The translations under genes and the position numbers were made by a program. DNA of 64,000 bases, from positions 6,512,001 to 6,576,000 of the forward strand of contig CM119371.1 of assembly GCA_051294905.1 (NCBI GenBank). The letters run 5' to 3'. This document shows, in pieces, positions 5,065 to 53,636 of this stretch (the first letter of the stretch is position 1; every line of letters begins with the position of its first letter). The notes under the pieces were generated by a model that worked only from the letters and a program-made list of their open reading frames with translations, had not been told where the DNA came from and did not search any database. Origin of the DNA: Botryllus schlosseri. Lineage: Eukaryota.

Positions 5065-5164
5065 NNNNNNNNNNNNNNNNNNNNNNNNNNNNNNNNNNNN
5101 NNNNNNNNNNNNNNNNNNNNNNNNNNNNNNNNNNNNNNNNNNNNNNNNNNNNNNNNNNNNNNNN
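5065..5164. other. Assembly gap (run of N)
   Basis: 100 consecutive n. Confidence 1.
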
Positions 5165-8300: not shown

Positions 8301-11300
8301 TTCGTTTGCCTGTGCTTTAGGTATAGATCAAGGGTTCTTAACCTGTACTCTCCGGCGCCCCTTTCAAAAAAATGCCTGGGTCTGGCGGCCCTATTTTAAG
8401 GACTGTAGTAAAAACAATGGGTAAATGGTGTAAGTCCGGTTTCGGGTTGGGAACCATCGATAGCAGAAAGTAATCGTATTTAATGTTAGTGTTAAGATAC
8501 CAAGACACTAGTCAATAGAATTATTAACGTAATGTACTTCAATAGCTGTTGAAGTCAATCAGACATCTGTGGTCGATCAAAGTTGTGGACAAGTTCTTTG
8601 AACTCTGGCTGCATGTTAGACGCACAAATCCTTAGTAAAGACTGTACGTGAGCATAAGTTAGATTGGAACGTCTTGTTAATGTTTATGATCGAAAATGTT
8701 TCACGCAAATCCATGCAGATTTGTGTAGCGGGGCACATTGTCATGCAAGACAGGTATCTGTCAGTGGCGAGTTAGCGCAGTGGTATAATCACCGGCTACA
8801 ACACCAGTGGGTGCGGGTTCGAGCCCCGACCTAGGTCGACTTCTGAATTTCGATACCTAAGTGTTGGAGGTTTACCTAGGCTCCTCCTCGCCACCACATC
8901 CGTGTCAGCGGTGTCTTACAAAAGCCTAGAGGTTGGCCGTGGTATAAGTCGGCAGTTACGGAAAATAAGAATAATATCGGCCTGGTGTAAATGACCATCG
9001 TAGTCGACAAACACCACGGATACCCCAAAACAAACAAATCAGGTATCTGTCCGCGGAGCGCTCAAAATCACGTCGCGGGGCGGATCCAACAAGTTGCTAA
9101 ACTAATCGAATTAGTGTTACGAAATCAAGTTCTTTTAATGATTCGAATTTTGTGAAGTTAATTATTTTCGTAGATAAAATGGAAAAAGTATGTGTCGGTG
9201 GATCGAGAACACATTAACCGGATTTTGGAGTAGTCGATATTACGATTTATTTGATGTTTGGTATTCTACATATAACTCAAGTCTATCCGACTAGGCTCAA
9301 CGTTGCAAACATATTTCTATTTGCTTTCGTGGTGATCAAAGTGTCTTTTAAAACTTTAGCACGCTGGGTAGAGAGGATGTAACGAAATTAAGTATTAATC
9401 AATCAGTGGTATGCAAAATCAAGTTAATAATTTATTTCGACCAAAATTTTTATGTACCTTTGGTATCTTGTAAATAACTGTTTAATATGAAGATGGCAGT
9501 GTGGGATAAGCATTTGCGTTATGGGAGTGAGTAAAACGGACCTTGAATTTGATCTGACCAAAATCAACCTCACGTCACACAAAAACCTCAATTATATTAT
9601 AAGTGTAATATCGAATAAATTCCTATTGTGTTATATGATTTTCGATATCGAAAAAATAACAACACAGCGATTAATAATTTATGTTGGTCGGTGCTTTAGG
9701 TGTTGATTGATGAATTAGAGTAAGTGATATTTTGGATATGCGCACTAAGTTGAAAACTGCCCTGCTTCTTTGTATCGCTGAATTTAGCTATGTGTGAGTA
9801 AATTGGTAGTAATTCAATCATAACTCAAATTCATATTAACCGAAAAATACCTTTCGGTGATTTGGATCTTGTGATAATATTTGGTTCCATTACTGCGAGT
9901 GAACAGTGATACAAAACACCAGATTACCAGATTCACCATATTACGGTGTACAATTCCGATTTCTTTGATGTTCCGAGTTCAACATATAAAACAATAACTT
10001 TACCCAACTAGTTTAAGCATAATCCCAACTTTGTGAAATCGCTGTATCTCGCCATATTTTACATTGAGCGTGTTGGATGGTGCTGCGAATGGACTCAAGC
10101 ACGATTCAAGCCACCATATGTCATATCTCACACGCTTCGAATAGCGATCATACGAACCGATGCACATTGCGATGTAACGACGCTATGAGTATCTGTTTAG
10201 CTTCCCGTCACAAGTACCGATAATATGACTTGTGTGAGTTGGTGCATTCGACATTCACTACAATGTAAGATGTGGTACACATTGAATCATTTTAATTGAG
10301 TACTGATCGGATCGTTGAATCTCGTGTTGGGAATAAATTGGGTAATATGTAATCCGTAAAGAATTTGCTCGCATTACGATATCTTACATTATAATACATG
10401 GATTCACTTGCGACAAAATATATCTCAATCTATCATTGGTCAGACATTCGCATCTCGTATACTCAATATACAACATGTTAATCTCAAAGTCACAATGTTG
10501 GATGTAATGAACATTTTATCAATCGCTTTTGCGTCTTTGCGATGATGGAAGTGTTTGTGATAAATCTGTAGACCCAGAATTTTACATTGGGAACATTATA
10601 TAGTACGAAAGAATTCAAGCAATATCCAACCCGCGACATGCAAAACCGGCCACACGCTATATGCTCGCGCAACTTTTATTTTATCGTACATACAACGGTT
10701 AAGTTAGACGGGAAGGTATAACTGGATATAACACATGGCGATCTGTCAGTAATTGGCCTTGTTAGGTTTTGTAAGATGTCGATATTTCGGATGCAATGGC
10801 GATAGCATTTTCCAATACTCAATTTTGACACGGGTAAAACAGATCACTGATTGAGTTGAGTTTCAAATCATTTTGTGAATTTTTTGACCCCTTGATACTG
10901 CAGTTTCAACTTTAGCCTTGATTATTGTAAACGATTAGGTTTGTGAAATATTAGCTGATAATCACATTATACCATTCTGAAATACAGCATCACGATATCT
11001 TGCAATATAACACTTGGATTCGCTTGACAGAAAATTAATTCACGCAATCTGTCATTGATCAGATATTCAAAAATCTGCTAGGATTTACCCAAGCTCAATC
11101 GCGACACGACAATAATCAGGTAGTTATGATCACGTTGACGCAAGCGCTCGATAGGCTGTTTCAAAAATCTATACGTGACATACACACGTGAAACAATATC
11201 CACATTCATGGCTTTCCTACAGCAGTGATTCGATACACTCGATAGGATAGTTGGGTGCTGAACGATTGTATTCGGTGTGTCTTGTGTATACGCTCACGGA

Positions 11301-11490
11301 TTGCTTCTAGTCCAACATGTTCCACGGGAAGCAATTCGCGTAGTGATTTCAGTCGACAGGATACCATAGTCATTTGTCTCCGCAGAATATGTAGGTCACT
11401 TCGCATTAAAACACCTGTTTTCAAAATCGATCGCGGGAAGCGCACAATAACGCTTTTTCGAAGCTCCATAGGCCGATTTTCGACCACTAG
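5380..11490 (-). mobile_element. Highly degenerate non-LTR retrotransposon remnants (L1/Tx1-like)
   Basis: Minus-strand translations give decayed RT motifs in the expected order: QASKMDEHVF (~6220, cf. KAPGxDG..EFY), AVMVGKLDVNKA/DR (~5800, cf. LDxxKAFDR), FTV..TQQGCSPS (~5660, cf. RQGCPLS) and VFLW. APE-like TFHH..KAIDKMFITS/SD near 10450-10560; ORF1-like fragments 10650-11490. Many stops and frameshifts; boundaries approximate. Confidence 0.5.
8763..9039 (+). mobile_element. tRNA-derived SINE family A, full length
   Basis: A box TAGCGCAGTGG, B box GGTTCGAGCC, CAAA-repeat tail, 12-bp TSD CAGGTATCTGTC (8751-8762 and 9040-9051); second copy at 34277-34515. Confidence 0.85.
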
Positions 11491-13289
11491 CTAGCTCAAA
11501 ATGCACTGTTTCTGACTTCCGAAATACAACATTCTCGTTTCCGGTATTTTACGAATCACCAGCGGCTATTTACACTACTGACGTTAAAGTGGTGACCGAA
11601 GCATATGCCCATTGCCCATGTGTCGGGATCTGAACGTAGAGATGGCCTCATCACACAAAGACTGAAATCTGGAAAGCAGATGAAATCCTTCATTACGAAA
11701 CAAGCTTTTAAAGTTTGTGCATACTAATACTCTGGTAGTGAATTCATATTCGAAATATATCTTTTTTCAATATAGAATTGATGTTTTTGTGTTTTCAATA
11801 TGGATTTGCAATTTATGTGCTTTTAATATGGAGTTGTCAGTCATGAGATCAATCACTACAAGCTTTTGGCATCATAGCCACTGCTTCAGTGCGTAATTTT
11901 ACCTAAAAACAGCCTAAAAATCAATAATTTGCTTGTAACTTTTTTTCTGTTCATTTTCAAGACAAAAGTTCTATGGAATTGAGATAGAAACTTGTTGCTT
12001 CCGCATCTTTTAAGCCCAAAACCAGCTTTCTAGCATAAGCGGTAATCAATATATAGCGAAATTAGCTATTTTTGGCTCGTTCGGTGCAATTGCACGACCA
12101 CTAGAGGGTGCACGAGCCCAAAATGATTGTAGAATTTTTTTTTTAATTTGGCACCACATATCAAGTGTCCGTTTTGAAATTCAAAATTTTCCATTTTTCA
12201 CTCCACCCTAATCCCCCATGGGCCTTCACCAGCATTTCAACAATCAATTGATCAATATTTTACACTCTTTTGTCAGAATCGACCAATGTCATCATGGAAT
12301 CAAAAATTGTCGTATCAATTATTGGCATTACTCCACGTTTGCTTGATTTTCTTGGCCTCTGTGCTCGCATATTTCCTATCATGGTGGCCCCGCAGTCGCA
12401 CGCCTCAGTCAGACGACTTCATACATTACTGGTATAATTAGTTCTGTTGGTACCGAACCGGGAAATGTTTCGACGCGACGCTTTTCTGTATCATTACGAG
12501 GGTCAGTCCAGCATGGTTGAAGTTCTCATTTCTCTTACTGATTGAAATCTTCTGCAGACAACTATCCATCCGGCTGCTCTCTGTCTTAAGTGTCTTTGGT
12601 GATCGATTACTGCAGGGGGATTCCCACGAAGTCAGTGGGGCATAACGGTGGTTAGTTATCTATAATATTCAGATAGACACGCCTACTGCCCTGTATGCAG
12701 TATGCACTATATGCAGCTTGGCCATTTATTTTTATAATTGACCGTCCTCACGTCTTTTATCGACTTCTCTTGACTCCCTGCCACCATGTTGTGACGTCAC
12801 GAAAATGGCCGATATTTTTTTACCTTCAATGGCCGATACCGATATTTCTCTTTAAGCGTGATATCGACTCGATATTATCGGCGAGCCGATAATCGGTCGG
12901 GCTCTAATCCCTAATAAATAATTAAAGAACTGGTCACCGTAAATACTATTTTATTCAAATCCAAATTTTTCGACGGCAATAACTCCGCTTCCACTGGTTG
13001 GAATTGAACAACATTTGATGAACATCGTTTCTTAGGGTTAGTTCGGATATCAATAATTTTCACTATCCTGATAACGGATATATCCGGACATAGGCGCCGA
13101 CTTACGAGGTTACGAGGCCACCTCGTACAAAATGCCCAAACGTCCAAGTGATTTGTGACCAATAATTAATAATCAGGCGAATCGACGCGACCTCGTTAGA
13201 GACGTCGTCGACTTCGATACGCGCGTGTGTCAGGCGTCGATTTACGAGAAGCATGTTGTCAAATAGTGAGAAGATTCTGTGATGATCTC

Positions 13290-13475
13290 GAAGATAGTGT
13301 AATGGTTATGCTTCCGGCTTCTCAAGCGGTAGGTCGTAGGTTCGATCCCCGGCCGGTCAAAGACTCGAAGGCGCTCAGCAATCACGGATAGCATGGAGGA
13401 GAAAAAACGGGGGCCAAAGCATCTCGATAGTGCAGGCGAGAAAGAATATCATATCTCTCTCTCTCTCTCTCTCTC
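13290..13475 (+). mobile_element. tRNA-derived SINE family B
   Basis: A box TAGTGTAATGG, B box GGTTCGATCCC, (CT)n tail; homologs at 56627-56872 (-) and a degraded copy near 34808-34910. Confidence 0.75.
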
Positions 13476-13661
13476 CCGCTGAGATGGTCACGAAATTAGG
13501 TCATTCGTTCGGATTCCCGTCGCTAGCCCGATTTATCGCGTCTCGAACAAACCTGCATCTGCAATAGGCCCAGTTCACACTATACCATCGCTTGCCTGCG
13601 CAATCGCATCTGTATTGGCGGCTTCGGCCTGGCGTACACGATATCATCGCTGGTATATACA

Positions 13662-14769
13662 CAGGCCGTGTTATTTTTGGCATATGCCAAAACTGCCAAA
13701 AATAACTTATTTTTGGCATTTTTCGATTTTTATTTTTGGCAGTTTTGGCATCGTCCTCTAAATAGATAGTTTCAGCCTCGAATTAGTCACAAAAACGCTT
13801 CATTTGGGCTAGTTTGTCAAAAGACACCACAAAATGTGCAGCATCCACTTATAATCAATGCCAACAAACAATAGGAAGAAGAAAAAACCTAACGATTTCA
13901 TAGGTTAATAATATCAAACGAAACCACAAAATGTGCAGTATTCATCGGAATCGGTGCCAATAAGCAAAAAAAAGAAAACCCTAACAAACACTCTCAACGG
14001 CTGATTGTTACAGCTGTTGAATAGACTTAAATCGTGTGCACTGTAACAGTGCTTCCAAACTCAGGTCAGCTAAGTTTCTCCTAAATTCATTTCTCGCCCA
14101 GAGAATCTGGGAAATATCGGCTTCAACAGTAGCCGTTGAGGTAAAGAATGTTGCCAGTCATCCACAAAAGGTTTTCAGAGCTTTAAAATCTTTGGAGGGC
14201 CGAACCGGCTTCCATGCACCATGAAAAGAGATCACTTCGCCAGTGCCATCGATCTCGTCGCGGAAAGAATTGTCTTCCCGATCCTTTTCCAGGAGTTTCC
14301 TGTGTTGTCTCTCAACACATTCTATTTAGTAGCCCGAATATCATTTCTCCTTCAGTCTACTGATATATTCACTTCAGGTGGCTTATTACAAACTCGCATG
14401 GACGAGTCCTGGGAATGTTAGCTTGTTTAAGAACATTGACGCAACAAGATTGTCTGGCAAAACGAGACTATTCAGCTCAGAAATAGCCAGACAGTTTGTT
14501 GCGTCACAATGTTCAACTCGATCACAATGCAAAAATCGTGGTTGATTTTGGGGGTTCCAGCTCCATGAGCAGAATATAATTTATATTTTAATAATCAGTA
14601 CTGCGGCAGCTTCTCATTGATACCCGTTTTATCTAATTTAGCGCTCGACAAGCAAGTCAAACATGGTCGTAAAATTGCCTTTGGACAAATGGAAAGTATA
14701 ACGTAAACCAATGCAATTTTTGGCAGTTTTGGCATCTGGCTCCTGAAATGCCAAAAATAACACGGCCTG
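13662..14769. mobile_element. hAT-like MITE
   Basis: TIRs CAGGCCGTGTTATTTTTGGCA / TGCCAAAAATAACACGGCCTG; 8-bp TSD TATATACA (13654-13661, 14770-14777); TTTTGGCA subterminal motifs. Confidence 0.9.
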
Positions 14770-15709
14770 TATATACATGAGCAATGAGCATCTGCGATAG
14801 GCCTGGTGCGAAAGATACCATTGCTGGCTTATCTATCGCGTCTCGGACCTAGCATGCTTTGGCTTCTATCTCTCGCTGGTTTGGAGACAGTGCGGTCGAG
14901 TTTACGCTAATTGGTGATTGTTTTATGACCACTGTGATTCTGCCAGAAAATGCTTATGTCATATTTCCGAAATCGCTGAGTCATTGTTGTCGAAATGATT
15001 CACTTGAGCTAAGATCAAATATTATAACCGGAAAAACAATTTCGCGACAGATTTGGAGTGCAAACGAACTGAAACACACGAGTTTTATCAATAAATGGCG
15101 CAAACGGTATGATCAATACAATATGTCATCGAAACTTGGAAGGAGTGCTTCATTTTACAACCGCCAGGTAGTACTTATGGCATTTAAATTTTCAGCCGTT
15201 ACGTAATCTACGCAGGCGGATCTATTTCGATTCTCGCCTGTAGCCGAAGCATCAGAGGATAATTTGTGTTCCTTCCCCCATGTTTGACTGTTTCTTACGG
15301 CGTCAAGACGCCCGAAGAAAGACTCCACAAAAGATTATATGTGATATCGAGCAGAAAAAAAACAAATAATAACGTTTAACGAAGACAGCCTATCCCACAC
15401 TGTTACATCGACCAATTGGCTTTAGTCGTTGTTTGATTAAAATACCATAATAGGTAAATGCAACACCTTCTTGCCGGTTAACTACATCGCATTACACGCT
15501 ATGTGTCTTGAGCACATCAGAATATAAATGATTACGATTATTGCGATCAACGTCATGTTCGTGTTTGGTATAGGTCGACTGTAATGCCGCAATTTATAAG
15601 TTATTCAATAAACAATAAAAACAAAAAAATGCAATAGCGTTGCTTCTGCTTCGGACATTTTATATATTCGCAAAACTATTTCATCGTATGGTTTTACGTA
15701 GCCTACTTA

Positions 15710-17606
15710 TTGAAGATCAAAACGCACGATTTTCAAGTTTCAATCGACAATTAGGACACCCGAATTGTAACGGCGTGCCCTCTGCTTCGGATGTGTTACA
15801 TATTGGGATAAGTATTAAATCATGATGTTAATGATAATATCAAAAAGTTGGGAAATTGCGTACTTTTTCAAGATCAAAATGCACGATTTTGCGTCAAATA
15901 CGACTTTTCGTCCAATTCGATTTTCGGTCTATTTCAATCAACGATTAGGACACCCTAAATGTAACGGCGTGCCCTCTGCTTCGGATATGGTATAAATCTG
16001 GATAGGTATTACATCATGATATTAACGATAATATCAAAAAGTTGAGAAATTGCGTACTTTTTCAAGATCAAAATGCACGATTTTGCGTCAAATACGACTT
16101 TTCGTCCAATTCGATTTTCGGTCTATTTCAATCAACGATTAGGACACCCTAAATGTAACGGCGTGCCCTCTGCTTCGGATATGGTATAAATCTGGATAGG
16201 TATTACATCATGATATTAACGATAATATCAAAAAGTTGAGAAATTGCGTACTTTTTCAAGATCAAAATGCACGATTTTGCGTCAAATACGACTTTTCGTC
16301 CAATTCGATTTTCGGTCTATTTCAATCAACGATTAGGACACCCTAAATGTAACGGCGTGCCCTCTGCTTCGGATATGGTATATATCTGGATAGGTATTAC
16401 ATCATGATATTAACGATGATATCAAACAGTTGAGAAATTGTGTACTTTTTCAAGATCAAAATGCACGATTTTGCGTCAAATACGACTTTTCGTCCAATTC
16501 GATTTTCGGTCTATTTCAATCAACGATTAGGACACCCTAAATGTAACGGCGTGCCCTCTGCTTCGGATATGGTATATATCTGGATAGGTATGACATCATG
16601 ATATTAACGATAATATCAAAAAGTTGAGAAATTGCGTACTTTTTCAAGATCAAAATGCACGATTTTGCGTCAAATACGACTTTTCGTCCAATTCGATTTT
16701 CGGTCTATTTCAATCAACGATTAGAACACCCTAAATGTAACGGCGTGCCCTCTGCTTCGGATATGGTATATATTTCGATAAGTATTACATCATGATGTTA
16801 ATGACAATATCAAAAAGTTGGGAAATTGCGTACTTTTTTATGATCAAAATGCATGATTTTGCGTTAAATGCGACTTTTCGTCCAATTCGAATTTTGGGCA
16901 GTTTCAATCGACAATTAGAACGCCCAAAATGTAACGGCGTGCCCTCTGCTTCGGATATGCTATATATTTCGATAAGTATTACATCATGATATTAACGATA
17001 ATATCAAAAAGTTGAGAAATTGCGTACTTTTTCAAGATCAAAATGCACGATTTTGCGTCAAATACGACTTTTCGTCCAATTCGATTTTCGGTCTATTTCA
17101 ATCAACGATTAGGACACCCTAAATGTAACGGCGTGCCCTCTGCTTCGGATATGGTATATATCTGGATAGGTATTACATCATGATATTAACGATAATATCA
17201 AAAAGTTGAGAAATTGCGTACTTTTTCAAGATCAAAATGCACGATTTTGCGTCAATTACGACTTGTCGTCCAATTCGATTTTCGGTCTATTTCAATCAAC
17301 GATTAGGACACCCTAAATGTAACGGCGTGCCCTCTGCTTCGGATATGGTATATATCTGGATAGGTATTACATCATGATATTAACGATAATATCAAAAAGT
17401 TGAGAAATTGTGTACTTTTTCAAGATCAAAATGCACGATTTTGCGTCAAATACGACTTTTCGTCCAATTCGATTTTCGGTCTATTTCAATCAACGATTAG
17501 GACACCCTAAATGTAACGGCGTGCCCTCTGCTTCGGATATGGTATATATCTGGATAGGTATTACACCATGATATTAACGATAATATCAAAAAGTTGAGAA
17601 ATTGTG
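15710..17606 (+). repeat. 194-bp tandem array, left arm of foldback 1 (~10 units)
   Basis: CAAAAAGTTG recurs at 15841, 16035, 16229 (period 194); near-identical units. Confidence 0.95.
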
Positions 17607-17734
17607 ACGCAATAATGAAAATTTATAAATAACATTAATGGGAATTCAACCATAGCAACAATGCGGCGTATATAGCAACAAGCAACTTCAAGAAGTACTG
17701 TCCGTGAGGAATAACATACAAATGCAATGAGACA

Positions 17735-18481
17735 ATGCAGCAACACAGAATAAAAATTGTATTGTACGCATTACGTGTGGTAAATACTGATCGGCTAATA
17801 ATTGACACGCAACAAAATGCTACAATTCTGATGTACGTAAAAACTGGTGAGACGATCAAGGACGCAAGATCAAAGCAAATTCCTCGTCGCCGCATACCGC
17901 CTAATTTGGGCACATGCACAGTTGTGGAGAAAAAGAAAGATGTGCCGTATGTTCCACGGTATGGAAACAATCTCAACAATATGACATGGACAGGAACGTC
18001 TGTCATGCAGTTGAATTCTATGTTAAACAATTTGAAAAAACTTACCACCTCGTCAATGAGAAATGGAAATGCGAAAGCAGAATGGTATCGACATTCTCTG
18101 TTCGTGAAAGGACAACTAAAATCCCTGAAAAAATTCAATTCGACTCTGAAATATGCCGAGAGCGAAACTACGGAAACGCATCTGGAATATTTATTGGAAT
18201 TCATTAAATCGAAATTTTGCCTTAGAACTAGAACCGTTAAATATTTCAAGCACATGAGCGGGGAATTGTCACTATACAGCTCAAAAGACAGTTTAGTCGT
18301 TTATCCGAATCCTGAGGTGTTTGGGAACGCTTTGATTCATAGTTTTAAAGACAAAAAACGAAATTTCCGAGAATATGTAAACGAAGTGCTGCATTTTGAA
18401 GGAATGATATTTTTCGCAATGGCACTGAAAAACCAGGACTACAATTCAATATCAAAAGACTTTGGGTTTTCATTGGATTAA
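17735..18481 (+). CDS. 248-aa orphan ORF in the centre of foldback 1 (unknown function; possibly a decayed fragment)
   Basis: Longest ORF in the unique loop between the arrays; basic, no family recognised. An alternative frame has Cys/His clusters (HSCGEKERCAVC) interrupted by stops. Confidence 0.35.
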   Translation: MQQHRIKIVLYALRVVNTDRLIIDTQQNATILMYVKTGETIKDARSKQIPRRRIPPNLGTCTVVEKKKDVPYVPRYGNNLNNMTWTGTSVMQLNSMLNNLKKLTTSSMRNGNAKAEWYRHSLFVKGQLKSLKKFNSTLKYAESETTETHLEYLLEFIKSKFCLRTRTVKYFKHMSGELSLYSSKDSLVVYPNPEVFGNALIHSFKDKKRNFREYVNEVLHFEGMIFFAMALKNQDYNSISKDFGFSLD

Positions 18482-18721
18482 TTGGAATGATATGCTGCAT
18501 GAATTCAAATAATTCGTTTTTTCTCTAAATACGTCCATTTCTAGAATCCTATATCTACATCGAGTATGCTTTACAAAATACACGTTTCGAAATTACATTT
18601 TCAATTTGCATATTAATCCGTCTGAAGCTCATTGATTCGAGGGGAGTTGCTGACAAAACTTAGCGACGAAGAAAGCAGGACAGGACATAGCATGGTAAAA
18701 CAGAAATTGACCAGGAATCGA

Positions 18722-20640
18722 ATTATCGTTAATATCATGATGTAATACTTATCCCAATATATAATATATCAGCAGCAGAGGGCACGCCGTTACATTTTGG
18801 GTGTCCTAATTGTCGATTGAATCTGACCGAAAATGGAATTGGACGAGAAGTCGTATTTGACGTAAAATCGTGCATTTTGATCTTAAAAAAAGTAAACAAT
18901 TTCTCAACATTTTGATATTGTCATTAATATCATGATTTAATACTTATCGAAATATATACCATATCCGAAGCAGAGGGCACGCCGTTACATTTTGGGTGTT
19001 TTAATCGTTGATTGAAATAGACCGAAAATCGAATTGGACGAAAAGTCGTAATTGACGCAAAATCGTGCATTTTGATCTTGAAAAAGTACGCAATTTCTCA
19101 ACTTTTTGATATTATCGTTAATATCATGATGTAATACCTATCCAGATATATACCATATCCGAAGCAGAGGGCACGCCGTTATATTTTGGGTGTTTTAATC
19201 GTTGATTGATTTAGACCGAAAATCGAATTGGACGAAAAGTCGTAATTGACGCAAAATCGTGCATTTTGATCTTGAAAAAGTACGCAATTTCTCAACTTTT
19301 TGATATTATCGTTAATATTATGATGTAATACCTATCCAGATATATACCATATCCGAAGCAGAGGGCACGCCGTTACATTTTGGGTGTTTTAATCGTTGAT
19401 TGATTTAGACCGAAAATCGAATTGGACGAAAAGTCGTATTTGACGCAAAATTGTGCATTTTGATCCTCAAAAAGTACACAATTTCTCAACTTTTTGATAT
19501 TATCGTTAATACTATGATGTAATACTTATCCCAATATATAACATATCGGAAGCAGAGGGCACGCCGTTACATTTAGGGTGTCCTAATCGTTGATTGAAAT
19601 AGACCGAAAATCGAATTGGACGAAAAGTCGTATTTGACGCAAAATCATGCATTTTGATCCTCAAAAAGTACACAATTTCTCAACTTTTTGATATTATCGT
19701 TAATACTATGATGTAATACTTATCTAGATATATACCATATCCAAAGCAGAGGGCACGCCGCTATATTTTTGGTGTCCTAATTATCGATTGAAACTGACAG
19801 AAAATCTAATTGGACGAAAAGTCGTATTTGACGCAAAATCATACATTTTGATCCTCAAAAAGTACACAATTTCTCAACTTTTTGATATTATCGTTAATAC
19901 TATGATGTAATACTCATCTAGATATATAACATATCCAAAGCAGAGGGCACGCCGTTATATTTTAGGTGTCCTAATTGTCGATTGAAACTGAAAGAAAATC
20001 TAATTGGACCAAAAGTCGTATTTGACGCAAAATCGTGCATTTTGATCCTCGAAAAGTACGCAATTTCTCAACTTTTTGATATTATCGATAATACCATGAT
20101 TTAATACTATCCAGATATATACCATATCCGAAGCAGAGGGCACGCCGTTACATTTTGGGTGTCCTAATCGTTGATTGAAATAGACCGAAAATCGAATTGG
20201 ACGAAAAGTCGTATTTGACGCAAAATCATACATTTTGATCCTCAAAAAGTACACAATTTCTCAACTTTTTGATATTATCGTTAATACTATGATGTAATAC
20301 TCATCTAGATATATAACATATCCAAAGCAGAGGGCACGCCGTTATATTTTAGGTGTCCTAATTGTCGATTGAAACTGAAAGAAAATCTAATTGGACCAAA
20401 AGTCGTATTTGACGCAAAATCGTGCATTTTGATCCTCGAAAAGTACGCAATTTCTCAACTTTTTGATATTATCGATAATACCATGATGTAATACTATCCA
20501 GATATATAACATATTCAAAGCAGAGGGCACGCCGTTATATTTTAGGTGTCCTAATTGTCGATCGAAACTGACCGAAAATCCAATTGGACGAAAAGTCGTA
20601 GTTGACGCAAAATCATGCGTTTTGATCTTAAAAAAGTAGG
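18722..20640 (-). repeat. 194-bp tandem array, right arm of foldback 1 (~10 units)
   Basis: Reverse complement of the left-arm unit (GAAGCAGAGGGCACGCCGTTAC...); more divergent among its units than the left arm. Confidence 0.95.
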
Positions 20641-23054
20641 CGTCGTAAAACCACGATGAAATAGTTTTCCGAATATATAAAATGTTCGAAGCAGAAGAAA
20701 CGCTGTTGCTTTTTTGTTCTAACTGTTTATTGAATAATTCATAAAATACTGTATTACTGTCGACCTATACTAAACAAGAACATGACGTGAATCGCAATAA
20801 TCGTAAGCATGTGTTTTCTGATGTGCTCACGACATAGTGTGCAATGCGATGCAGGTGATCGGCAGGAAGATGTTGCATTTACCTATTATGGTATTTTAAT
20901 CAAAAACGACTTGAGCCAATTGGCCGATATAGCCTAACAGTGTTGGATAGGCTGTCTTCCTTAAATATTATTATTTTTACTTGTTTTCTCCTCGATATCA
21001 CGTATAATCATTTGTAGAATCTTTTTCCGGGCCTCTCGCCGCCGCGAGAAATAGTCACACATGGGGGAAGGAACACAAATTAACCTCTGATGCTGCGGCT
21101 ACAGGCGAGAATCGAGATAGGTCCGCCTGCGTAGATTACGTAACGGCTGAGAATTTAGATGCCATAAGTACTACCTGGCGGTTGTAAAATGAAGCACTCC
21201 TTCAAGTTTCGATTATATATTGTATTGATCATACCGTTTGCGCCATTTATGGATAAAACTCGTGTGTTTCAGTTCGTTTGCACCCCAAATTTGTCGCGAA
21301 ATTGTTTTTCCGGTTATAATATTTGATTATAGCACAGGTGAATCATTTCGACAACAATGACTCAGCGATATCCGAAATATGACGGAAGCATTTTCTGGCA
21401 GAATCACAGTGGTGTTTTATGTTACATTGATTAAAGAGCGACATCGCAAAACTGAATAACATAGAATCGCTGCAAAGAGACTTTAACGTGCGTAATTGAT
21501 TACCGCTAATACTTGAACGTAACGATCAGAAGATGTGTATCATGGCTTGAGTTCTAAACCACTACACAGGTCTGAACCACCTGAAATCAGTGCCGCCACG
21601 TTCGGACATTTTGATTTGCCAAAACTGTCATTGAGGCTGCGTAATCCGCGCGCGTATTTAATTGTTCACCAGAGATCAGGGACTCTCTAATTGACAGCAC
21701 TTCCGGACTCGTTGGCAAGCTTATCATACGCGTAAAATCGTCAACATGAACACCATCCTAGATCTCCTCTCCCGACTATTCGCCCAAATAGACGATCTGC
21801 TTTTTTATCATCATAATGATGTGCGCCCACATTCGTTTACAAAATCATTCTTACGCTAGCTAGCTTCGTGCGATAGTCTTCGTAATCGGAGCGCGAAATT
21901 GGAGGGTGTATTGGTGTGTGCCTCCAAATTGGAATTCATTTTTGCGCATATTCGTTTCTCTAAGAAGGCTTTGCCAGTGAGATTAATCGGGAAATGCAGC
22001 AATACAGCTTGAACACCGATATAATGAGAAAACAATTGACGCGAAGAAAGCTGCTCAATACTATATCAAATTCAAAACCCATTCGTAGCGATACTGATTA
22101 GAATACACGCTTTCTCGTTTGCTACCATCCATATTTTTTTGTTTTCTACTTGATACTTTCGTACTCCGAAATTGTCGCACGAAGTCATTTTTCAGTGTTC
22201 CTTTCGTTATTAACGTGCAGTAGGCAATGCCATGCCATTGTCAAATATTGACGCATACCGAGATTCTGGGTGGCACAAATTCTGATTTTATTCGATTTGT
22301 TTGAACTGGGAACCTTCTATATTCCGATCAACTTGATTGCTGGATGTACTCGTATCGAGAACAGCAATATCGATTATTAAACTATTAGGCATTTGGTAGC
22401 CAGTGAATTTCTATTGATAAGATTGCGGCATGCGTACGGAAGTGGAATTAGTGCTAGCCCAGGGGTATCCAACCAGCGGCCGTAGAAGGAAATTTGTTCA
22501 GCCGTCAACACGTAATTCAATTAGTATGTGTTGGCGGCCATCGACATGCAAATTGAATTTACGAATTGACCGATGTACTTCCAATATGATTCGCGAACGT
22601 AAATCGGAAATGTACCAATGCCGCCAAAATCGCTGTTTTAATCGACAAACAATTGCCGCGATGCGAGCTAATCAACGCGAAGCCAGAAATCGCAAGCGAC
22701 AACTATTGATTGGCTGCGCGATTTCGCGTTTGTAATCATCATTATTGTCTGCTTGAAACCTCATGTTCGAGAGTTGTCATGTGTTAATTGCGAACTTGCC
22801 AGGCCAGTGCGTAGCGTATTTAGTTACTCACATCACAACGCATTGCGCGTGAATAACATTGATACAACTCCAAATTCTCAGTGATGTAAATTCTGATTTC
22901 TGTTAGGTGCATTCCGTCGGACAGACTAGCAGCGCAGTTATATTTTCGTGCGATCGTACTCGTATCGTTTTAAGATGCCATTTAATAACTCGACTGCATG
23001 GTTTGATATGAATGATCACAGGGCCGGTATTAAAACGCCACACGAATAGTTTGA

Positions 23055-23544
23055 AGGGGCACTGCGCTCTAAAAATGATGTGGTCTCAAATTGAAGGTAA
23101 AAACGACCAAAAATTTTGGGCCGCGGCCATTTCCTTCAGAACGCCACCGTAATGGAGGTGCAATTTATTGAAATTTCTACAAGACCAGCTGCCGCGACTG
23201 CTTAACCCGTTACATGGCACGATATCTTCACCGTCGCACTTGCTCGACGCGATTAGGCAGTCTCGCATAGAACGAATTTTAGATAGTTGTCAGCCGATGT
23301 TATGAAGGAAATGTGTCTAAGTTTCGTTCTCTGCGGGAATGCCTTATCGCGTCGAGCAAGTGCGACGATGAAGACATCGTGCCATGTAACGGGTTAAGCA
23401 GCCGCGGCAGCTGGTCTTGTAGAAATTTCAATAAATTGCAGCTCCATTACGGTGGCGTTCTGAAGGAAATGGCTGCGGCCAAAAATTTTTGTTCGTTTTT
23501 ACCTTCAATTTGAGACCACATCATTTTTAGAGCGCAGTGCCCCT
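23055..23544. mobile_element. Palindromic Kolobok-like MITE (490 bp)
   Basis: ~230-bp inverted arms starting AGGGGCACTGCGCTCTAAAAATG; flanked by TTGA (left) and TTAA (right), consistent with a TTAA TSD. Confidence 0.8.
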
Positions 23545-23869
23545 TTAACGCTGCACGTAAACCAGCGCCATGTAGTAAAGTGCGTTTTAGGGCGACGATG
23601 ACGTCATCGATATGGAACGATTATGACGTCACTAGACTTCGCCACCTCGTAAAAAAATAAAAGTCGGCGCCTATGTATCCGGATATTGGAAATTTTTCTA
23701 ACCGGTTAACCGTATAATAACTGCTAAGTGAGACAATCGATTTCATGAGGTCTGCAAGAAAAACGGATCGCAAAATCATTACACAGTGTTATTGTAGAGT
23801 ACCTGCCTATACCTACACGCGCAGGCGCAGTACGAGCGAATATGAGAAAAAAACGCATATTTAATGTTA

Positions 23870-31202: not shown

Positions 31203-31405
31203 CTTTAGATACATACACCGCAAAAAGAAATTGTCACCATACCAGCAAAGTTCGATACATTTTAATTATATTTTTCAGCCCAGTGTGTCTGTGTATACTG
31301 TAGGCCCCTACAGCTGATTTCAAATTGCAATACCCGAAATAACTTAATTATGTTCACTTGAAAAACAGTGCTACTCTATATTGTACATTTTTATGAATAT
31401 TAATC

Positions 31406-33007
31406 ATGGTGCAGATTGTCTGTCCAAATGTGGAGAAACATGCAGTGAAGATGATGGCAGAATTACATCGCATGAAGCAAGATAGCGATCATTGTGATTT
31501 CACAATTCAAGTTGGAAATGATGTCTACTACACACACAAAAATGTATTGTCGGCTGGATCCGAATATTTCAGAGCGATGTTGAAACATGACACAAAAGAG
31601 AGTCGCGAAGGAAGAGTCGTTTTCAGGGATGTGGATTCTCAGTGCGTGAAAAGTTGCATAGATTTCATATATTCCGGTAAATTTGATGTTCCCGATGAAA
31701 AGATGAATGATCTTCTTTATGTCGCAATCATGATGCAGTTGGAAGATGTGAAGCAGGCGGTATCTGATGCTTTAGCCGGATCAATTACCACAGAGAATTA
31801 CTTTCCCATACGAAACATTGCTGATATGTATGGTCTCGATGATCTCCACTCAAAATGCAGAATCTATTTTCAAGATAATATAATGGATATATCAAACCAA
31901 ATTGAATTTGGAGATACAGAACAAAATGAAATCACCGGTGTCATAAACTCGGAACAGCCAAAATTGAGTGAAGAAGATAAACTATCGTTATCGCTAAAAT
32001 GGGTGGAGAAAAATCCTAAAAAACGGGAAAATTTGCTGGAATGTCTAGAGTTGCTCAAGTTCGACGAAATGTCTCGGGCGTTTTTGCAGAATCTGTTAGA
32101 GACGCATCCCATAATCAGCAATGACTTGATGTTGTACAAGTTAATCAATGGCCATTTTATGAAAGCAACAATAAAGCCGATCGTATCAAAAGGCAGCGGT
32201 GAAATATTAATTCTTTTCAGTTACAAGACGGATGGTATCCAATCCTTTAATCCCACTACTGAGAAAGTAGAGAAGCTCCACGATGAAAAGTTCAAGCATT
32301 TGACAAATTTCAGCGCTATTTCTCTCGGCACTTATCTTTATATTTTATGTGGCACTAAATCTGTTCATCGTCTGAATTTCCGAAACAAAAATTCAAAATG
32401 GGAGAAGATGAAAGATATGATTCGCGACCATGGAGAGATTCCTCGTTCAGAGTGCTTATCGGGATCGATATTCGTCATTGGTGGAAGTTATCCTGAGGAA
32501 AGTAATTCCGTGGAAAGATATGACCCATCTGTAAATCAATGGGTTCAACTGGGGAATAAACCCACAAAAATAGCTTACGCAAGTCTCGTATCATTGAATG
32601 ATTCCATCTATTGTGTCGGAGGCAAACGTGATAAGGTTGTGGTTTCGTCGTTCAGCAGATTCACTCCATACTCATCAGAGTGGGTTGATCTCGAACATAT
32701 GAGATATCCAGCCTATGATTGTGGTGTTGTTGCAGTTGATCAAAAGATATTTGTGATCGGAGAGGGAACAGGGAGAAAGAAAATCAATTACATGGAATGT
32801 TATAATGTTACGTCAGCTCAGTGGACGTCATTGTCATCTCCAAATGTTTGCCGTGCTTGGAACGACGCGTTTCACGTTGGCGAGTGGATTTTTGCAGTAG
32901 AAGAGCTTGGAAATATCGAGAAATATGATATATTGAAAGATAAATGGAGTAAGGTGAAACCAAAAGTAGGTTTCAAAATCTACCGGACTGTAAAAGCGAA
33001 TGCATGA
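31406..33007 (+). CDS. Kelch-like protein (BTB-BACK-Kelch), 533 aa, intronless CDS
   Basis: BTB (CDFTIQVG...HKNVLSAGSEYFRAML), BACK region, and Kelch repeats (IFVIGG...VERYDPSVNQW; IYCVGG; MECYNVTSAQW). Polypyrimidine-TTTCAG acceptor at ~31278. Confidence 0.95.
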   Translation: MVQIVCPNVEKHAVKMMAELHRMKQDSDHCDFTIQVGNDVYYTHKNVLSAGSEYFRAMLKHDTKESREGRVVFRDVDSQCVKSCIDFIYSGKFDVPDEKMNDLLYVAIMMQLEDVKQAVSDALAGSITTENYFPIRNIADMYGLDDLHSKCRIYFQDNIMDISNQIEFGDTEQNEITGVINSEQPKLSEEDKLSLSLKWVEKNPKKRENLLECLELLKFDEMSRAFLQNLLETHPIISNDLMLYKLINGHFMKATIKPIVSKGSGEILILFSYKTDGIQSFNPTTEKVEKLHDEKFKHLTNFSAISLGTYLYILCGTKSVHRLNFRNKNSKWEKMKDMIRDHGEIPRSECLSGSIFVIGGSYPEESNSVERYDPSVNQWVQLGNKPTKIAYASLVSLNDSIYCVGGKRDKVVVSSFSRFTPYSSEWVDLEHMRYPAYDCGVVAVDQKIFVIGEGTGRKKINYMECYNVTSAQWTSLSSPNVCRAWNDAFHVGEWIFAVEELGNIEKYDILKDKWSKVKPKVGFKIYRTVKANA

Positions 33008-34515: not shown

Positions 34516-35584
34516 AGTTTTAACAAAGTTCCGAGTCACAGGTCAATTTGACTTTGATAGTTTTGACTCGAGTCATTTCCAATTCACCACAGAGTAGAGT
34601 CCAAGTCATAGTATTTACTGTTCAGTATCTATAGTTCAAGTCAGGTTGAACTCACCTCTGTGAAACACTTGGGTGATATCGACAGCCTCGGGGATTCGTG
34701 ATGTAATCATTTTTTCTGACATTAAATATGTTTATTCAAATAGATAAAAGACAGTTTCTTGGCCTATTTTTCAATTATAATTGAATTATCGGTCCTGATA
34801 TACGACAAGATAGCGTAATGGTGAAGCCAAAGACCAAAGACTTGAGTAGTAACACTGTTATCCATGACTTCCCTGCTTGGCGCTCATGCATATATGGAAT
34901 CGCATGGAGGGGTGGTGCAAGACTCGGAAAGCCATAAAAAAGGCTATATCTGCACGTTCCTTGTCCAGCGGCTTATGCACATCATGCGCTCATGATATGC
35001 ATATGCGCAGATCGTGTGTATGTGTAGCATGAGTCGGTGTATATGCCGCAAAATACAGCACGGACAAAAATAAGCTACGTCCTTTTCCTTTCCTAGGATT
35101 ACCATATTTTAGAATCCGGCAAGGACGACACTTTTATCAAATCATAAAAGTTAGTTTTGAAAACAACTGATTCTGTTATATTGTCTGGAAATCTCGTTGT
35201 GTTGACTTTAAAAAGTCATATTCCTTCGCTCATCGTACTATATAGATCAGGGTTGTAACCAAGTCACAAGGCTCCGAGTCACAGGTCAATCTCACTTTTG
35301 AACTTTTGACTCGAGTCAAGTCGAGTCATTTTCAATTCACCAACGAGTTAAGTCCGAGTCCAAGTCAACGAGCAGAGGGTCGAGTCCGAGTCATGGTATT
35401 ATGACTCGAGTCCGGGTCCAAGTCATTGTGTTGACTGCTCACTTGCTCAGTTTCCAGTTAAAGTCTTGCTAAACCCACTTTTTACAACTCTATTTGGTGA
35501 TATTGAATGGTTCGCATTTATAATATACCGTACCAATTTTCCTCACTTTTAGCAGTTTCTGGTCGCATTTTCAAGTACCACTAT

Positions 35585-35820
35585 TGTGGTGTATCAGTCC
35601 CTTTTGACCACTAGTGGGTGTTTATACTGATTGCTCCTGATTACCTTCACGTCGGGACTATTCATTTCATTCGTACCAGTTGGGTGTGGCGTCGCTTCTG
35701 TCAGTTGTACCTACGTTAACTCTGTATTATTGCCATGTTGTATTCAGATACACTAGCTTACTTTTATGTTAATAAAAGCCTAGGAACCGATCGTATTGAG
35801 TTCTATCGAAGGGTACAACA
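35585..35820 (+). repeat. 5' LTR
   Basis: TGTGGTG...TACAACA; AATAAA at 35771-35776. Confidence 0.98.
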
Positions 35821-35849
35821 ATTTTATTAACATAAATGGTCATCTCAAC

Positions 35850-38426
35850 ATGGCGTTCTCTCAAGAAAAGTACATACGTGTGCCAGTTTTGGAAGTGATG
35901 CCAAGCTCGGCTGACTCGCAGAAGATATTCAATCATTGGGAGAAGATGTTGGGGAAATTCTTAGTTGCCGCGCAGGCCTCCGCTTCAAACTCAACGGCTC
36001 CCAATCGATCCTCTTCTGACCCTCCAGCTGAAGTGACTATTGACAAATTAGCTATTCTATACGGATATATATCTCCGGATGTGTTCGCTCTTGTAGAGCA
36101 CTTCGCTACGTATGAATCCGCTCTTGAGGCGCTATGCAAGCTCTACAAGAAAAAGAATAACGTGATCTACTCCAGACACCTCTTGGCAACGTCTCGTCAG
36201 GATCAAGGAGAAAGCGTCACGGATTTTTCGCTAAAATTGCTTACTCTCGCTAAAGATTGCATGTTCGCTGCTGTAAATTCCGACGAGCATCAAAAGGAAG
36301 CAGTTCGCGACGCCTTAATTGCTGGCTTACGTTCGCCTAATATTCGTCTTAGATTATTGGAGCACGATGATATGACATTGGACAAAGCGGTTCAGATAGC
36401 CGAATCTCTCGAGCGAGCTCAGCAATTTTCGTCTTCTTACGAGCCCATATCGATGCCCGTCCCTGTCGCCGTGAGTGCTGTGGGATCTGAACAGACGACT
36501 AATAGCGATCAAGTCAAAATAACGCCGGAGGGGACCGGCGAAGTTGCATTAGTCACGAAAGCATACAAGAAGTGCCAATATTGCGGCAGTCAACATTACC
36601 CTCTGCGCAAGGTCTGTCCCGCGAAAAACGCCGATTGCTATAAATGTGGATATAAAGGCCATTTCGGTAAGGTATGCAAAAGTGGCACTCAAAATAGGAA
36701 GATCGCTGCGCCAGCGTATGATTCTGATGAAGCCTCTCATTTGGCTTCTCTAGACGCCGGTGGAACTGGTGCGGTAACGTTTAATTCCGCCGAAGTGGCG
36801 GACCTCGCTTCCCTGTTGATTGGAGTACCGAAATCACTCAGATACTCGGCTATCATCATCAATATAGCAGGATTGACTATAGAGGCGCTGGTCGACTCGG
36901 GGGCCTACGAATGCTTTATGAGACGATCGTTTGCTAATTCGCTTGCACTCCCTCTGCACGGACCGGAATCCACTATTACTCTGGCATCGAAGGACTCCAC
37001 CTCTAAAGTATTGGGGCACGTTACTTCGCCATTCACAATACAGGATCATAAATACAGCGAAACACGTTTCGGAGTCGTAAACAACTTGTGCGCGGATGTG
37101 ATCTTAGGATTGGAGTTCCTGAAAACTCACAAGAACGTCATTTTCAAGTTCAACGGGCCTCGAAGCGACTTGATCATCGGTGATTCTCACTGTTCCGTCG
37201 CTGCCGCTAAGATTACAGAGACGCCAAAGATATTCCACTTCGTTGATAGAAATGTCGACCCCATCGCTGTGAAATCAAGAAATTATTGCACCGACGACGC
37301 CCAATTCATCAAAGAAGAGGTGTCAAGATTACTGCAAGAAGATGTGATAGAAAAGTCCGTCTCTCCGTGGCGGGCTCAGGTTCTGGTGACGAAAGATGAA
37401 CGCCATAAAAAGCGGTTAGTTATCGACTATTCTCGAACTATTAATAGATATACGCCCCTGGACGCGTATCCGCTCCCTAGAATCGAGCATATTGTTAATG
37501 AAGTCGCTAAAGGAACGGTATATAGCACCATCGATCTGAAATCCGCGTATCATCAGGTGCCTCTTTGCCCTTCAGACCGTCCTTTAACAGCTTTCGAAGC
37601 TGACGGTAATTTATACCAGTTTCGTCGATTGCCTTTTGGGATAACAAACGGCGTCGCAGCTTTCCAGCGATTCATAGACAATTTCATCCGAAATCATAAC
37701 CTGCAAGGTACTATTGCTTACCTGGACAATGTTACTATTTATGGCAAAAATAGAAAAGAACACGATAAGAGGTTGGAACGTTTTATGACTTCAGCCAAGG
37801 CTGACGGGCTGACTCTGAATGAAAAGAAATGTGCGTTCTCAGTTGAAAAGTTATCGCTCCTGGGGTACCTTATTTCCCATAACAAAATTCAGCCTGATCC
37901 TTGCCATTTGAAACCTTTGATGGATATGCCCATCCCTAACAATGCAAAAAGTTTAAAGCGCTGCTTGGGTATGTTTGCCTATTATTCGAAATGGATACCT
38001 TCGTTTTCGGAGAAAATGAAACCATTGACTCGAAACATTGAATTTCCGTTGAAAACCGATGGACTCCAGGCTATCAAATCGTTGAAAAATAGCCTTATAG
38101 GTGCTTGCCTAAGTTGTATATATGACGACGAACCTTTCGAGGTTGCCTGTGATGCTTCGGACGTGGCTATCGCGGCCATACTAAGTCAAAGAGGCAGACC
38201 TGTAGCGTTTATGTCGCATACTCTTTCCAAATGCGAGTCAAAATACAATATTGTTGAAAAAGAGGCTCTCTCGCTATTATTGAGGCCATACGAAAATGGG
38301 GATACTTGCTTCACCGCAATAAGTTCCGCCTCGTTACCGATCAAAAAGCATTGTCGTTCATATTCAGCAAAACTCACGCTAGTAAAATCAAAAATGCTAA
38401 GTTGTCGGTGTGGAAACTCGAATTGA
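35850..38426 (+). CDS. Gag-Pol polyprotein, first part (Gag, CCHC knuckle, protease, RT, RNase H start)
   Basis: First ATG at 35850; CYKCGYKGHFGKVC; LVDSGA; IDLKSAYHQ, LPFG, YLDN; CDASD. The natural frame is lost at ~38270. Confidence 0.93.
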   Translation: MAFSQEKYIRVPVLEVMPSSADSQKIFNHWEKMLGKFLVAAQASASNSTAPNRSSSDPPAEVTIDKLAILYGYISPDVFALVEHFATYESALEALCKLYKKKNNVIYSRHLLATSRQDQGESVTDFSLKLLTLAKDCMFAAVNSDEHQKEAVRDALIAGLRSPNIRLRLLEHDDMTLDKAVQIAESLERAQQFSSSYEPISMPVPVAVSAVGSEQTTNSDQVKITPEGTGEVALVTKAYKKCQYCGSQHYPLRKVCPAKNADCYKCGYKGHFGKVCKSGTQNRKIAAPAYDSDEASHLASLDAGGTGAVTFNSAEVADLASLLIGVPKSLRYSAIIINIAGLTIEALVDSGAYECFMRRSFANSLALPLHGPESTITLASKDSTSKVLGHVTSPFTIQDHKYSETRFGVVNNLCADVILGLEFLKTHKNVIFKFNGPRSDLIIGDSHCSVAAAKITETPKIFHFVDRNVDPIAVKSRNYCTDDAQFIKEEVSRLLQEDVIEKSVSPWRAQVLVTKDERHKKRLVIDYSRTINRYTPLDAYPLPRIEHIVNEVAKGTVYSTIDLKSAYHQVPLCPSDRPLTAFEADGNLYQFRRLPFGITNGVAAFQRFIDNFIRNHNLQGTIAYLDNVTIYGKNRKEHDKRLERFMTSAKADGLTLNEKKCAFSVEKLSLLGYLISHNKIQPDPCHLKPLMDMPIPNNAKSLKRCLGMFAYYSKWIPSFSEKMKPLTRNIEFPLKTDGLQAIKSLKNSLIGACLSCIYDDEPFEVACDASDVAIAAILSQRGRPVAFMSHTLSKCESKYNIVEKEALSLLLRPYENGDTCFTAISSASLPIKKHCRSYSAKLTLVKSKMLSCRCGNSN

Positions 38427-39598
38427 GCGCCTTCAAGTATGAAATAATTCATCGCCCGGGTACTGAGAATGTTGTTCCTGATACATTTTCTCGTGTCTGC
38501 TGCTCGTTGCCAAATTCTGGCTTGTCTCTCCATCAGGTGCACGAAGCTCTTGCTCATCCCGGAGTACGACGGTTGAACCATTTTATTAGAGCGAAAAACT
38601 TGCCATTCTCTGTAGATGAAGTCCGAAAGATCTGCGCTAACTGCAGAATATGCTCCGAAATCAAACCGCGATTCTATAAATCCAATGTCCATCACCGTCT
38701 CATTAAATCGACTAGACCGTGGGAGAGAATAAGTATTGATTTCAAAGGCCCTGTTGAAGGACCTCGAAAGTATCTGCTCGTAATTATTGACGAATACAGC
38801 AGATTTCCATTTGCGTATCCATGCCGAGATATGACATCAGCTACCGTTGTTAATTGTCTCACTGATTTGTTTTCCTTGTTCGGTCTGCCCGAATATGTTC
38901 ACAGCGATCGTTCAAACTCGTTCTTATCGAAGGAAGTAACGACGTTTCTTACCCGTAAAGGCATAGCAACGAGCAAAACTACTCCGTACCATCCCACTGG
39001 AAACTCTCAATGTGAGCGTTTGAATCAAACGCTCTGGAGATCAGTAAGAATGCTCTTAGCCTCACGAAAATTGCCTGAAAGTTCATGGGAAGCTGTGTTG
39101 CCTGATGCCCTTCACTCTATCCGTTCGCTTCTGTGTACTACTACTAATTCGTGTCCGCACGACAGATTTTTCAATTTCAGTAGGAGAAGTATGATGGGGG
39201 AATCGGTTCCAGATTGGATACTCCAAGGAGGCTCCGTGTTGCTGAGGAACTTCGCAAGGAGAAGTAAAAGTGATCCGCTCGGAATCGAAGTCGATTTGCT
39301 CGAAGCTAACTCCAAATATGCCTTGATCCGGCATCCATCTGGAGTGGAATCGACCGTCTCAGTCAAGGACCTCGCACCTTATCCGCCTACTACTGAGCCC
39401 TACCCAGTCGATGATGGGGCTGCCGAACCGGACCGTGCAGTGGCCGACGATTCGTTTCTGGTTGAACCTACGGTTGACGTTGGCAACAAACAAGATTCTT
39501 CAGAAACTTTGCAAGAAGTTGTCGCTGATCCTCCGCCCTTGAGAAGATCAACTAGAATCAAACGCGCGCCTGAACGATATGGACAATCCTCTTTATAA
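38273..39598 (+). CDS. Pol, second part (RNase H end and integrase), out of frame by a 2-bp insertion
   Basis: AIIEAIRKW...TDQKAL (RNase H); HEALAHPG...CANCRIC (HHCC); DFKG/HSDRSNSF/NSQCER (DDE core). Confidence 0.9.
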   Translation, partial: AIIEAIRKWGYLLHRNKFRLVTDQKALSFIFSKTHASKIKNAKLSVWKLELSAFKYEIIHRPGTENVVPDTFSRVCCSLPNSGLSLHQVHEALAHPGVRRLNHFIRAKNLPFSVDEVRKICANCRICSEIKPRFYKSNVHHRLIKSTRPWERISIDFKGPVEGPRKYLLVIIDEYSRFPFAYPCRDMTSATVVNCLTDLFSLFGLPEYVHSDRSNSFLSKEVTTFLTRKGIATSKTTPYHPTGNSQCERLNQTLWRSVRMLLASRKLPESSWEAVLPDALHSIRSLLCTTTNSCPHDRFFNFSRRSMMGESVPDWILQGGSVLLRNFARRSKSDPLGIEVDLLEANSKYALIRHPSGVESTVSVKDLAPYPPTTEPYPVDDGAAEPDRAVADDSFLVEPTVDVGNKQDSSETLQEVVADPPPLRRSTRIKRAPERYGQSSL

Positions 39599-39626
39599 TT
39601 ACTTTGCTTTTGTTAGTGGGGGAGAT

Positions 39627-39862
39627 TGTGGTGTATCAGTCCCTTTTGACCACTAGTGGGTGTTTATACTGATTGCTCCTGATTACCTTCACGTCGGGAC
39701 TATTCATTTCATTCGTACCAGTTGGGTGTGGCGTCGCTTCTGTTAGTTGTACCTACGTTAACTCTGTATTATTGCCATGTTGTATTCAGATACACTAGCT
39801 TACTTTTATGTTAATAAAAGCCTAGGAACCGATCGTATTGAGTTCTATCGAAGGGTACAACA
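39627..39862 (+). repeat. 3' LTR
   Basis: Identical to the 5' LTR except CTGTC->CTGTT; preceded by the PPT. Confidence 0.98.
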
Positions 39863-53468: not shown

Positions 53469-53636
53469 CTATGTATCAAATAAATGTCGATGCACTTGAG
53501 TCGGGGTTTTGCAATCAAGCTCCTGTTTGAGTTGAAGCCGCTGTTCGCCTCTTCTTGATTTAGTACATTCGTGACGATTATGCCTGTCTCCAGTTATATG
53601 AAAGTCGATTTGCGCCGAATTCGCCATACTGTACAA

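Follow-up and report, generated by a model that had tools for sequence, protein, structure and literature searches.

A 6.5-kb foldback element with internal arrays of 194-bp units and a chimeric core in Botryllus schlosseri

Arms, arrays and termini of the element

The window analysed here is a 64,000-nucleotide stretch of Botryllus schlosseri DNA. It contains a foldback element of ~6.5 kb at 14928-21413 (the coordinates are those of the initial annotation), whose features are collected in Table 1. Self-BLAST pairs 14928-17584 with 21413-18722 in inverted orientation (88.8% identity over 2702 columns), with a core of 1137 bp between the aligned arms. Each arm is 2.7 kb long and consists of ~0.8 kb of unique outer sequence and of 194-bp units (9.6 in the left arm and 9.9 in the right arm). 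Self-BLAST and TRF therefore bear out the ~2.7-kb inverted arms, each made of an outer segment and ~10 tandem 194-bp units, that had been annotated initially.

The termini of the element start with AC and are flanked by an exact 8-bp target-site duplication (TSD), GTTTTATG; two random 8-mers from the window match with a probability of 4.5e-5 (2,000,000 draws). The annotated intact TSD thus holds in its exact 8-bp form. A 10-bp TSD can also be read, with one mismatch and with the element ends shortened by one base, as can, by eye, a 9-bp TSD that needs asymmetric ends. As several readings fit (8, 9 and 10 bp), a single copy does not fix the TSD length of the family. The element has the structure that defines foldbacks, and we agree with its description as a DNA transposon of foldback type whose TSD is Mutator-like.

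No transposase is encoded in this copy, as judged from the list of open reading frames (ORFs) and from Pfam. The Rfam search gave 0 matches, and the terminal 25-mer of the element had 0 matches among metagenome contigs. Seven 8-mers are common to the terminus and the 194-bp unit; they are scattered, and no candidate transposase-binding word was found near the end. A RAG/Transib-like terminal heptamer was rejected by eye, the boundary there having no 5-bp duplication. The 203-bp array and the second foldback of the window showed no relation to the element.

Table 1. Positions of the features of the foldback element within the window
Feature	Position	Strand	Remarks
Left TSD	14920..14927	.	Exact 8 bp
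Left unique outer (flanking) domain	14928..15737	+	First 350 bp identical to the right arm at 330/350 positions; inner part 82-88%
Degenerate 194-bp unit with internal deletion	15636..15737	+	Inner edge of the outer domain; local alignment to the unit
Left array	15738..17604	+	9.6 x 194 bp (TRF); mean pairwise difference 4.9%, 9 full units
Piece of another high-copy repeat	17600..17760	+	From read/contig depth and loose ends; holds the ATG of the ORF and its first ~9 codons
248-aa ORF	17735..18481	+	Residues ~47-246 (17873-18472) form an uncharacterised domain
Right array	18722..20638	-	9.9 x 194 bp (TRF); mean pairwise difference 9.3%, 9 full units; traces of two-unit duplication
Right unique outer domain, with the terminal inverted repeat at its end	20639..21413	-	Self-alignment with the left arm
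Right TSD	21414..21421	.	Exact 8 bp

The arrays were compared by their 18 full units, 9 per arm, the two partial inner units being excluded. Units differed on average by 4.9% in the left arm (36 pairs), by 9.3% in the right arm (36 pairs) and by 8.9% when compared across arms (81 pairs); when the arm labels were permuted, 7/10,000 permutations gave an arm contrast as extreme. The left arm is thus homogenised and the right arm is not. Near-twins are found among the right units (2% difference for R1 versus R3, and likewise for R2 versus R5), and the right unit R8 is only 2–4% away from seven left units. No column is fixed for different bases in the two arms among the 18 full units, the closest being 8/9 versus 8/9. 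The arm-specific homogenisation that had been proposed is therefore significant but incomplete, some right units being left-like. This pattern would fit expansion that took place mainly inside the single arms, with a degree of exchange between the two, and the arms provide a small natural test of how arrays homogenise inside one arm and across an inverted pair. The local alignment between 15561-15737 and the unit was not equalled in any of 1000 shuffles (0/1000), and the 194-bp unit may have been derived from the outer domain, in that direction.

The arms can pair with each other in 28 perfect runs of at least 21 nt (1140 nt in total), and the RNA duplex predicted for the outer 300 nt has an energy of -502 kcal/mol, versus a mean of -97 over 20 shuffles. 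Both values agree with the hairpin-forming capacity attributed to the element; dsRNA might be produced from the arms.

The core and its open reading frame

Four of the 24 sequencing runs listed were aligned to 17540-18790 (the core and the array edges; the termini and flanks lie outside that stretch). Parts of the element are present in at least 20 runs from 11 studies, and three contig runs, each from a different study, contain the core. In run X7, three contigs with depths of 378–434 span the greater part of the core and show, over 896 aligned bases, 7 mismatches and 0 gaps; the reading frame is thus open there too. Of the 1.1-kb unique core annotated initially, the size stood but the uniqueness did not, and both its chimeric make-up and its coding content had been overlooked.

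The depth of X7 was 8,800–20,100 in 17600-17760, ~430 in the remaining core and ~20,000 at the array edges, depths not being equal to copy numbers. This contrast suggests that there are far more 194-bp units than this core would explain. Loose ends were observed at 17600 and at 17756-17761 in all three contig runs (3/3). High depth together with loose ends on both sides marks 17600-17760 as part of a different abundant repeat, which makes the core a chimera: its first ~160 bp come from this repeat. Because the array extends past 17604 and the foreign repeat extends upstream of 17600, the joint has a 5-bp microhomology (17600-17604). The flanks of the high-copy piece have no other occurrence within the window. 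No second full copy of the element was seen by searching the metagenome contigs for the terminal motif, or in the runs, which were aligned on the core only.

The initial annotation noted no coding content in the core and missed a frame of 248 codons. The stop-free run around it spans 257 codons, and 0/3000 shuffles gave one as long. Homology starts at ~residue 47, downstream of the foreign repeat piece that contains the ATG. Pfam assigned no family to the ORF, a capsid match being rejected as sub-threshold (E 0.047), and the word-seeded protein search confirmed 0/183 candidates. An exhaustive search of 1.84 billion proteins gave 4 matches, 2 of which run across most of the ORF: P0002 (E 4.2e-10, 25% identity) and P0003 (E 2.1e-7, 23% identity). 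The other two, P0004 and P0005, were discarded as short matches within repetitive proteins.

The clusters of P0002 and P0003 include longer members. A protease-like segment precedes the domain in P0006, where it is Ulp1-like (Pfam C48, E 0.012), and in P0010 of the ascidian Clavelina lepadiformis, where it is USP-like (UCH, E 6e-4). Neither match reaches the Pfam cut-off; P0006 and P0010 may themselves lie in transposons. In hhalign, residues 49-246 matched the Clavelina group with 95% probability; compared directly, the Clavelina group and P0006 gave a probability of 0.7%, and the two are linked solely via P0001. Longer protein forms with the domain were not found among 4950 candidates of 640–2000 aa (0/4950, a weak negative; lengths of 488–639 aa fall outside this search), and pattern matches of profile A2 were confirmed in 0/136 cases in metagenome contigs and in 0/81 in viral contigs. 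A remnant of the USP His-box upstream of the ORF, seen by eye, was unsupported (shuffle p 0.07 and 0.31, best alignment elsewhere, no Pfam match).

Structure prediction of the ORF reached a pLDDT of 37.7 alone and of 50.7 with an alignment, values too poor for claims about the fold. With the low-confidence model, Foldseek gave 0 matches at E<=0.001 and VIA a best Z of 5.0, neither of which points to a new fold. The PDB sequence search returned 0 matches for the ORF domain. The Atlas gave no usable match for the ORF and, for the Clavelina domain, leads of at most 0.80.

The most likely reading of the ORF is that of an orphaned 3' remnant, left from a longer gene. The uncharacterised C-terminal domain, with a protease-like domain upstream in both longer relatives, is the sole lead here beyond known biology, and might in time serve to mark protease-bearing transposases.

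Origin of the element

We consider that the element is probably a non-autonomous, internally deleted foldback cut-and-paste transposon that works like Mutator/Rehavkus, with no transposase in this copy. The superfamily likeness is drawn from the arms and TSD of one copy, which makes Mutator/Rehavkus a candidate affiliation. Counting against it, TSDs of 8 bp are not specific to MULEs, and the termini start with AC. The searches with the terminal 25-mer in metagenome contigs, with 4950 protein candidates and with profile A2 found no autonomous partner.

The proposed mechanism has five parts. (i) A transposase from an autonomous partner would bind the arms, cut the termini and reinsert the element with a staggered cut of 8–9 bp. 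(ii) The innermost part of the outer domain would have given rise to the 194-bp unit, whose number then grew through unequal exchange or slippage, mainly within an arm, with occasional exchange between arms. (iii) Deletion or gap repair at the 5-bp microhomology would have made the core. The longer gene of which the 3' end was left would most likely encode a protease-bearing transposase polyprotein. (iv) The frame would still be open owing to recent amplification of the family. (v) The 11% difference between left and right arms would predate the insertion and be inherited from the founder. As the cores are <1% apart whereas the arms are 11% apart, we infer that the arm asymmetry is older than the insertion and that amplification was recent.

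A Pack-type foldback, in which the core ORF was captured from a host gene (e.g., the tail of a host deubiquitinase), is unlikely. A chimeric core of unrelated pieces is what gap-filling capture is described to produce (PMC8277862), the named relative carries the UniRef label 'USP domain-containing protein', and USPs appear among the Atlas leads for the Clavelina domain with a low score (0.76). However, the proteases that precede the domain in its relatives are of two different classes; these relatives are very few and share 23–25% identity with it, unlike a conserved host gene, and no closer host parent emerged from the word-seeded or exhaustive protein searches.

That the foldback belongs to another superfamily (hAT, P/Galileo-like or Merlin) is improbable. 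TSDs of 8 bp, the exact length observed here, are also made by hAT, P and Merlin elements. Long arms together with protease-linked domains suit MULEs better, a fit that is partly general knowledge. The foldback build evolves repeatedly, its structure being described as non-monophyletic (PMC3169594, PMC4079207), but the TSD reported for Galileo is 7 bp (PMC3573991), and the foldbacks with a known transposase are, in the published account, mostly Mutator-like (PMC4079207).

We regard it as very improbable that the open ORF domain is kept under selection and expressed as a stand-alone trans-acting protein, the arms feeding a 194-bp satellite. If so, a recently amplified foldback family would have dropped its transposase and retained a previously unnamed ~200-residue domain that normally stands after the SUMO- or ubiquitin-protease of the autonomous partner, and the stand-alone protein would be a helper, an anti-silencing factor or a dominant-negative regulator. 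Even a little less probable is the ORF as a working stand-alone gene under selection, encoding an accessory or anti-silencing protein. Its frame is unbroken both in this copy and in the X7 contigs and, among the 16 variants listed in the ORF, 7 are synonymous and 0 are stops (p 0.036 with 21% expected synonymous, p 0.18 with 30% expected), a pattern that would be weak evidence for selection on the ORF. However, 12 further rows lie beyond those listed and many of the variants stem from single low-depth contigs; the start codon lies in a piece of an unrelated repeat, upstream of the homologous part; and the youth of the family accounts for the intact frame. RNA support for the core is at trace level: RNA run X24, of which ~6% was read, gave 16 reads in 12.9 million records, 94% of them with unlike tails. 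The sole loose end listed in this run resembles library adaptor, and none of the 20 runs listed as containing part of the element is an RNA run.

An assembly artefact with a false inversion is hardly credible: among the 24 pieces listed of 1605, none bridges an array-core junction and none spans 17540-18790, and no read or listed contig was seen to cross the element, but an 11% difference between arms, with arm-specific variants, is unexpected in a mirrored contig, the TSD is exact, the only N gap of the window lies at 5065-5164 and thus outside the element, and the core recurs in three studies.

Comparison with known foldback systems

The repeats of FB elements are short and extend to the termini. 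Here, the TRF array is absent from the outer 810 bp and the unit is 194 bp long, and by this feature the element is not a member of FB/FB-NOF. The FB-NOF-like affinity that had been proposed found no link when the core ORF was used in Pfam and in the word-seeded and exhaustive protein searches, none of which gave a NOF-like match; Tetris, Galileo F and Tribolium Rehavkus are closer builds. As described, FB4 and FB-NOF resemble the element in being non-autonomous foldbacks, probably MULEs, that may contain an ORF or a captured gene in their interior, but FB4 has TSDs of 9–10 bp and terminal inverted repeats (TIRs) of ~700 bp (PMC8277862), compared with 8 bp and 2.7-kb arms here.

The foldback structure alone is reported not to fix the superfamily (PMC3169594). 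In Galileo F, of the P superfamily, direct repeats of ~210 bp are described inside long TIRs, with arms varying independently (PMC3573991). The element shares direct repeats of ~200 bp inside long TIRs and arm-independent variation; unlike it, Galileo F has up to 3 units and a P-type transposase, and membership in Galileo was rejected on the tested TSD, an exact 8 bp versus the 7 bp described (PMC3573991). The long TIRs and the 8-bp TSD of this one copy resemble those of MULEs, for which TSDs of 8–11 bp are listed (PMC6446971), and Muta1 is reported to make TSDs of 8 or 9 bp (PMC5225508).

The likeness to Tetris of Drosophila virilis, compared by description and not by sequence, is closer. Tetris is described with an outer domain that reaches 866 bp, internal repeats of ~220 bp and TSDs of 8–9 bp, or 10 bp in rearranged copies (PMC4079207). 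The element likewise has a unique outer domain (~810 bp), internal tandem repeats (194 bp) that appear to derive from it, as the degenerate unit at 15636-15737 suggests, a middle domain and an 8-bp TSD within that range; both are non-autonomous, and Tetris, proposed to be a Mutator element, is tied to satellite arrays (PMC4079207). In contrast to the published Tetris copies, however, the arms are longer (2.7 kb versus up to 1.7 kb), each arm holds ~10 units instead of the 3 and 4 of one described allele pair, an inverted inner domain is lacking, and a 248-codon ORF lies in the core, whereas the Tetris cores are described without one (PMC4079207).

Tribolium Rehavkus also has subterminal tandem repeats inside inverted termini, with up to 50 repeats in the termini and arrays of up to 80.5 kb reported (PMC12581902). 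Its listed TSD is 9 bp (PMC6446971), whereas that of the element is an exact 8 bp and reaches 9 bp only with asymmetric ends. The Rehavkus transposase has a PHD finger, whereas this copy has no transposase, and the listed Rehavkus hosts are arthropods and annelids (PMC6446971, PMC12581902). The design of the element, which the initial annotation took to represent a possibly undescribed foldback family, is thus known from published accounts of Tetris, Tribolium Rehavkus and Galileo F, and the family may already be catalogued.

We found no literature linking foldbacks with ascidians, Ciona or tunicates in the incomplete literature collection that was searched. An older foldback report in Ciona reportedly exists. 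Judged from the published descriptions, the element probably works like Tetris and Rehavkus. Satellite seeding is published for both, with arrays of up to 66 copies for Tetris (PMC4079207, PMC12581902), and we agree that the element belongs to a class able to seed satellites. It provides a clean example, in a tunicate, of how foldback arms give rise to satellite-like arrays, a route that has been described before.

A second foldback and smaller inverted repeats

A further foldback, which has no relation to the 6.5-kb main foldback at 14928-21413, is present in the window. It is flanked by an exact 8-bp TSD (46555-46562 and 50882-50889), its terminal repeat is rich in GC and its arms consist of intermixed 141-bp and 187-bp units, the right arm being interrupted by an insertion of ~450 bp (about 49610-50060). 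No frame of more than 88 codons was found in its 896-bp core. Three smaller repeats were also observed: a MITE-like palindromic element with 90.6% self-complementarity; a 1.6-kb element with inverted arms of ~440 bp at 77%, starting and ending with TGTACA; and a ~1-kb repeat present as two inverted copies (85%), which are edged by short GGAGCC-type repeats.

Features of the window
Feature	Position	Strand	Description
~1-kb repeat, first copy	46-1057
N gap	5065-5164		100 bases
Abundant-repeat fragment	17600-17760
Palindromic element	23051-23548		498 bp
BTB-BACK-Kelch ORF	31397-33007	+	536 codons, uninterrupted
LTR retrotransposon	35583-39863		LTRs 239 bp, 99.6% identical
BTB-BACK-Kelch ORF	40714-42402	-	562 codons, uninterrupted
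~1-kb repeat, second copy	44762-45803
Second foldback	46563-50881
1.6-kb element	53630-55229
Tandem array	57323-60671		16.5 x 203 bp

Tandem array, abundant repeat and assembly gap

The 203-bp units of the tandem array (matches 94%) are unrelated to the 194-bp unit repeated in the main foldback arms, and the array has no inverted partner within the window. The core of the main foldback includes a fragment of a very abundant repeat, the natural flanks of which are absent from the window. The N gap lies outside the main foldback.

LTR retrotransposon between Kelch ORFs

The LTR retrotransposon, the coding region of which comprises two overlapping frames (protease-RT-RNase H and integrase), sits between two convergent BTB-BACK-Kelch ORFs that are 67% alike at the DNA level.
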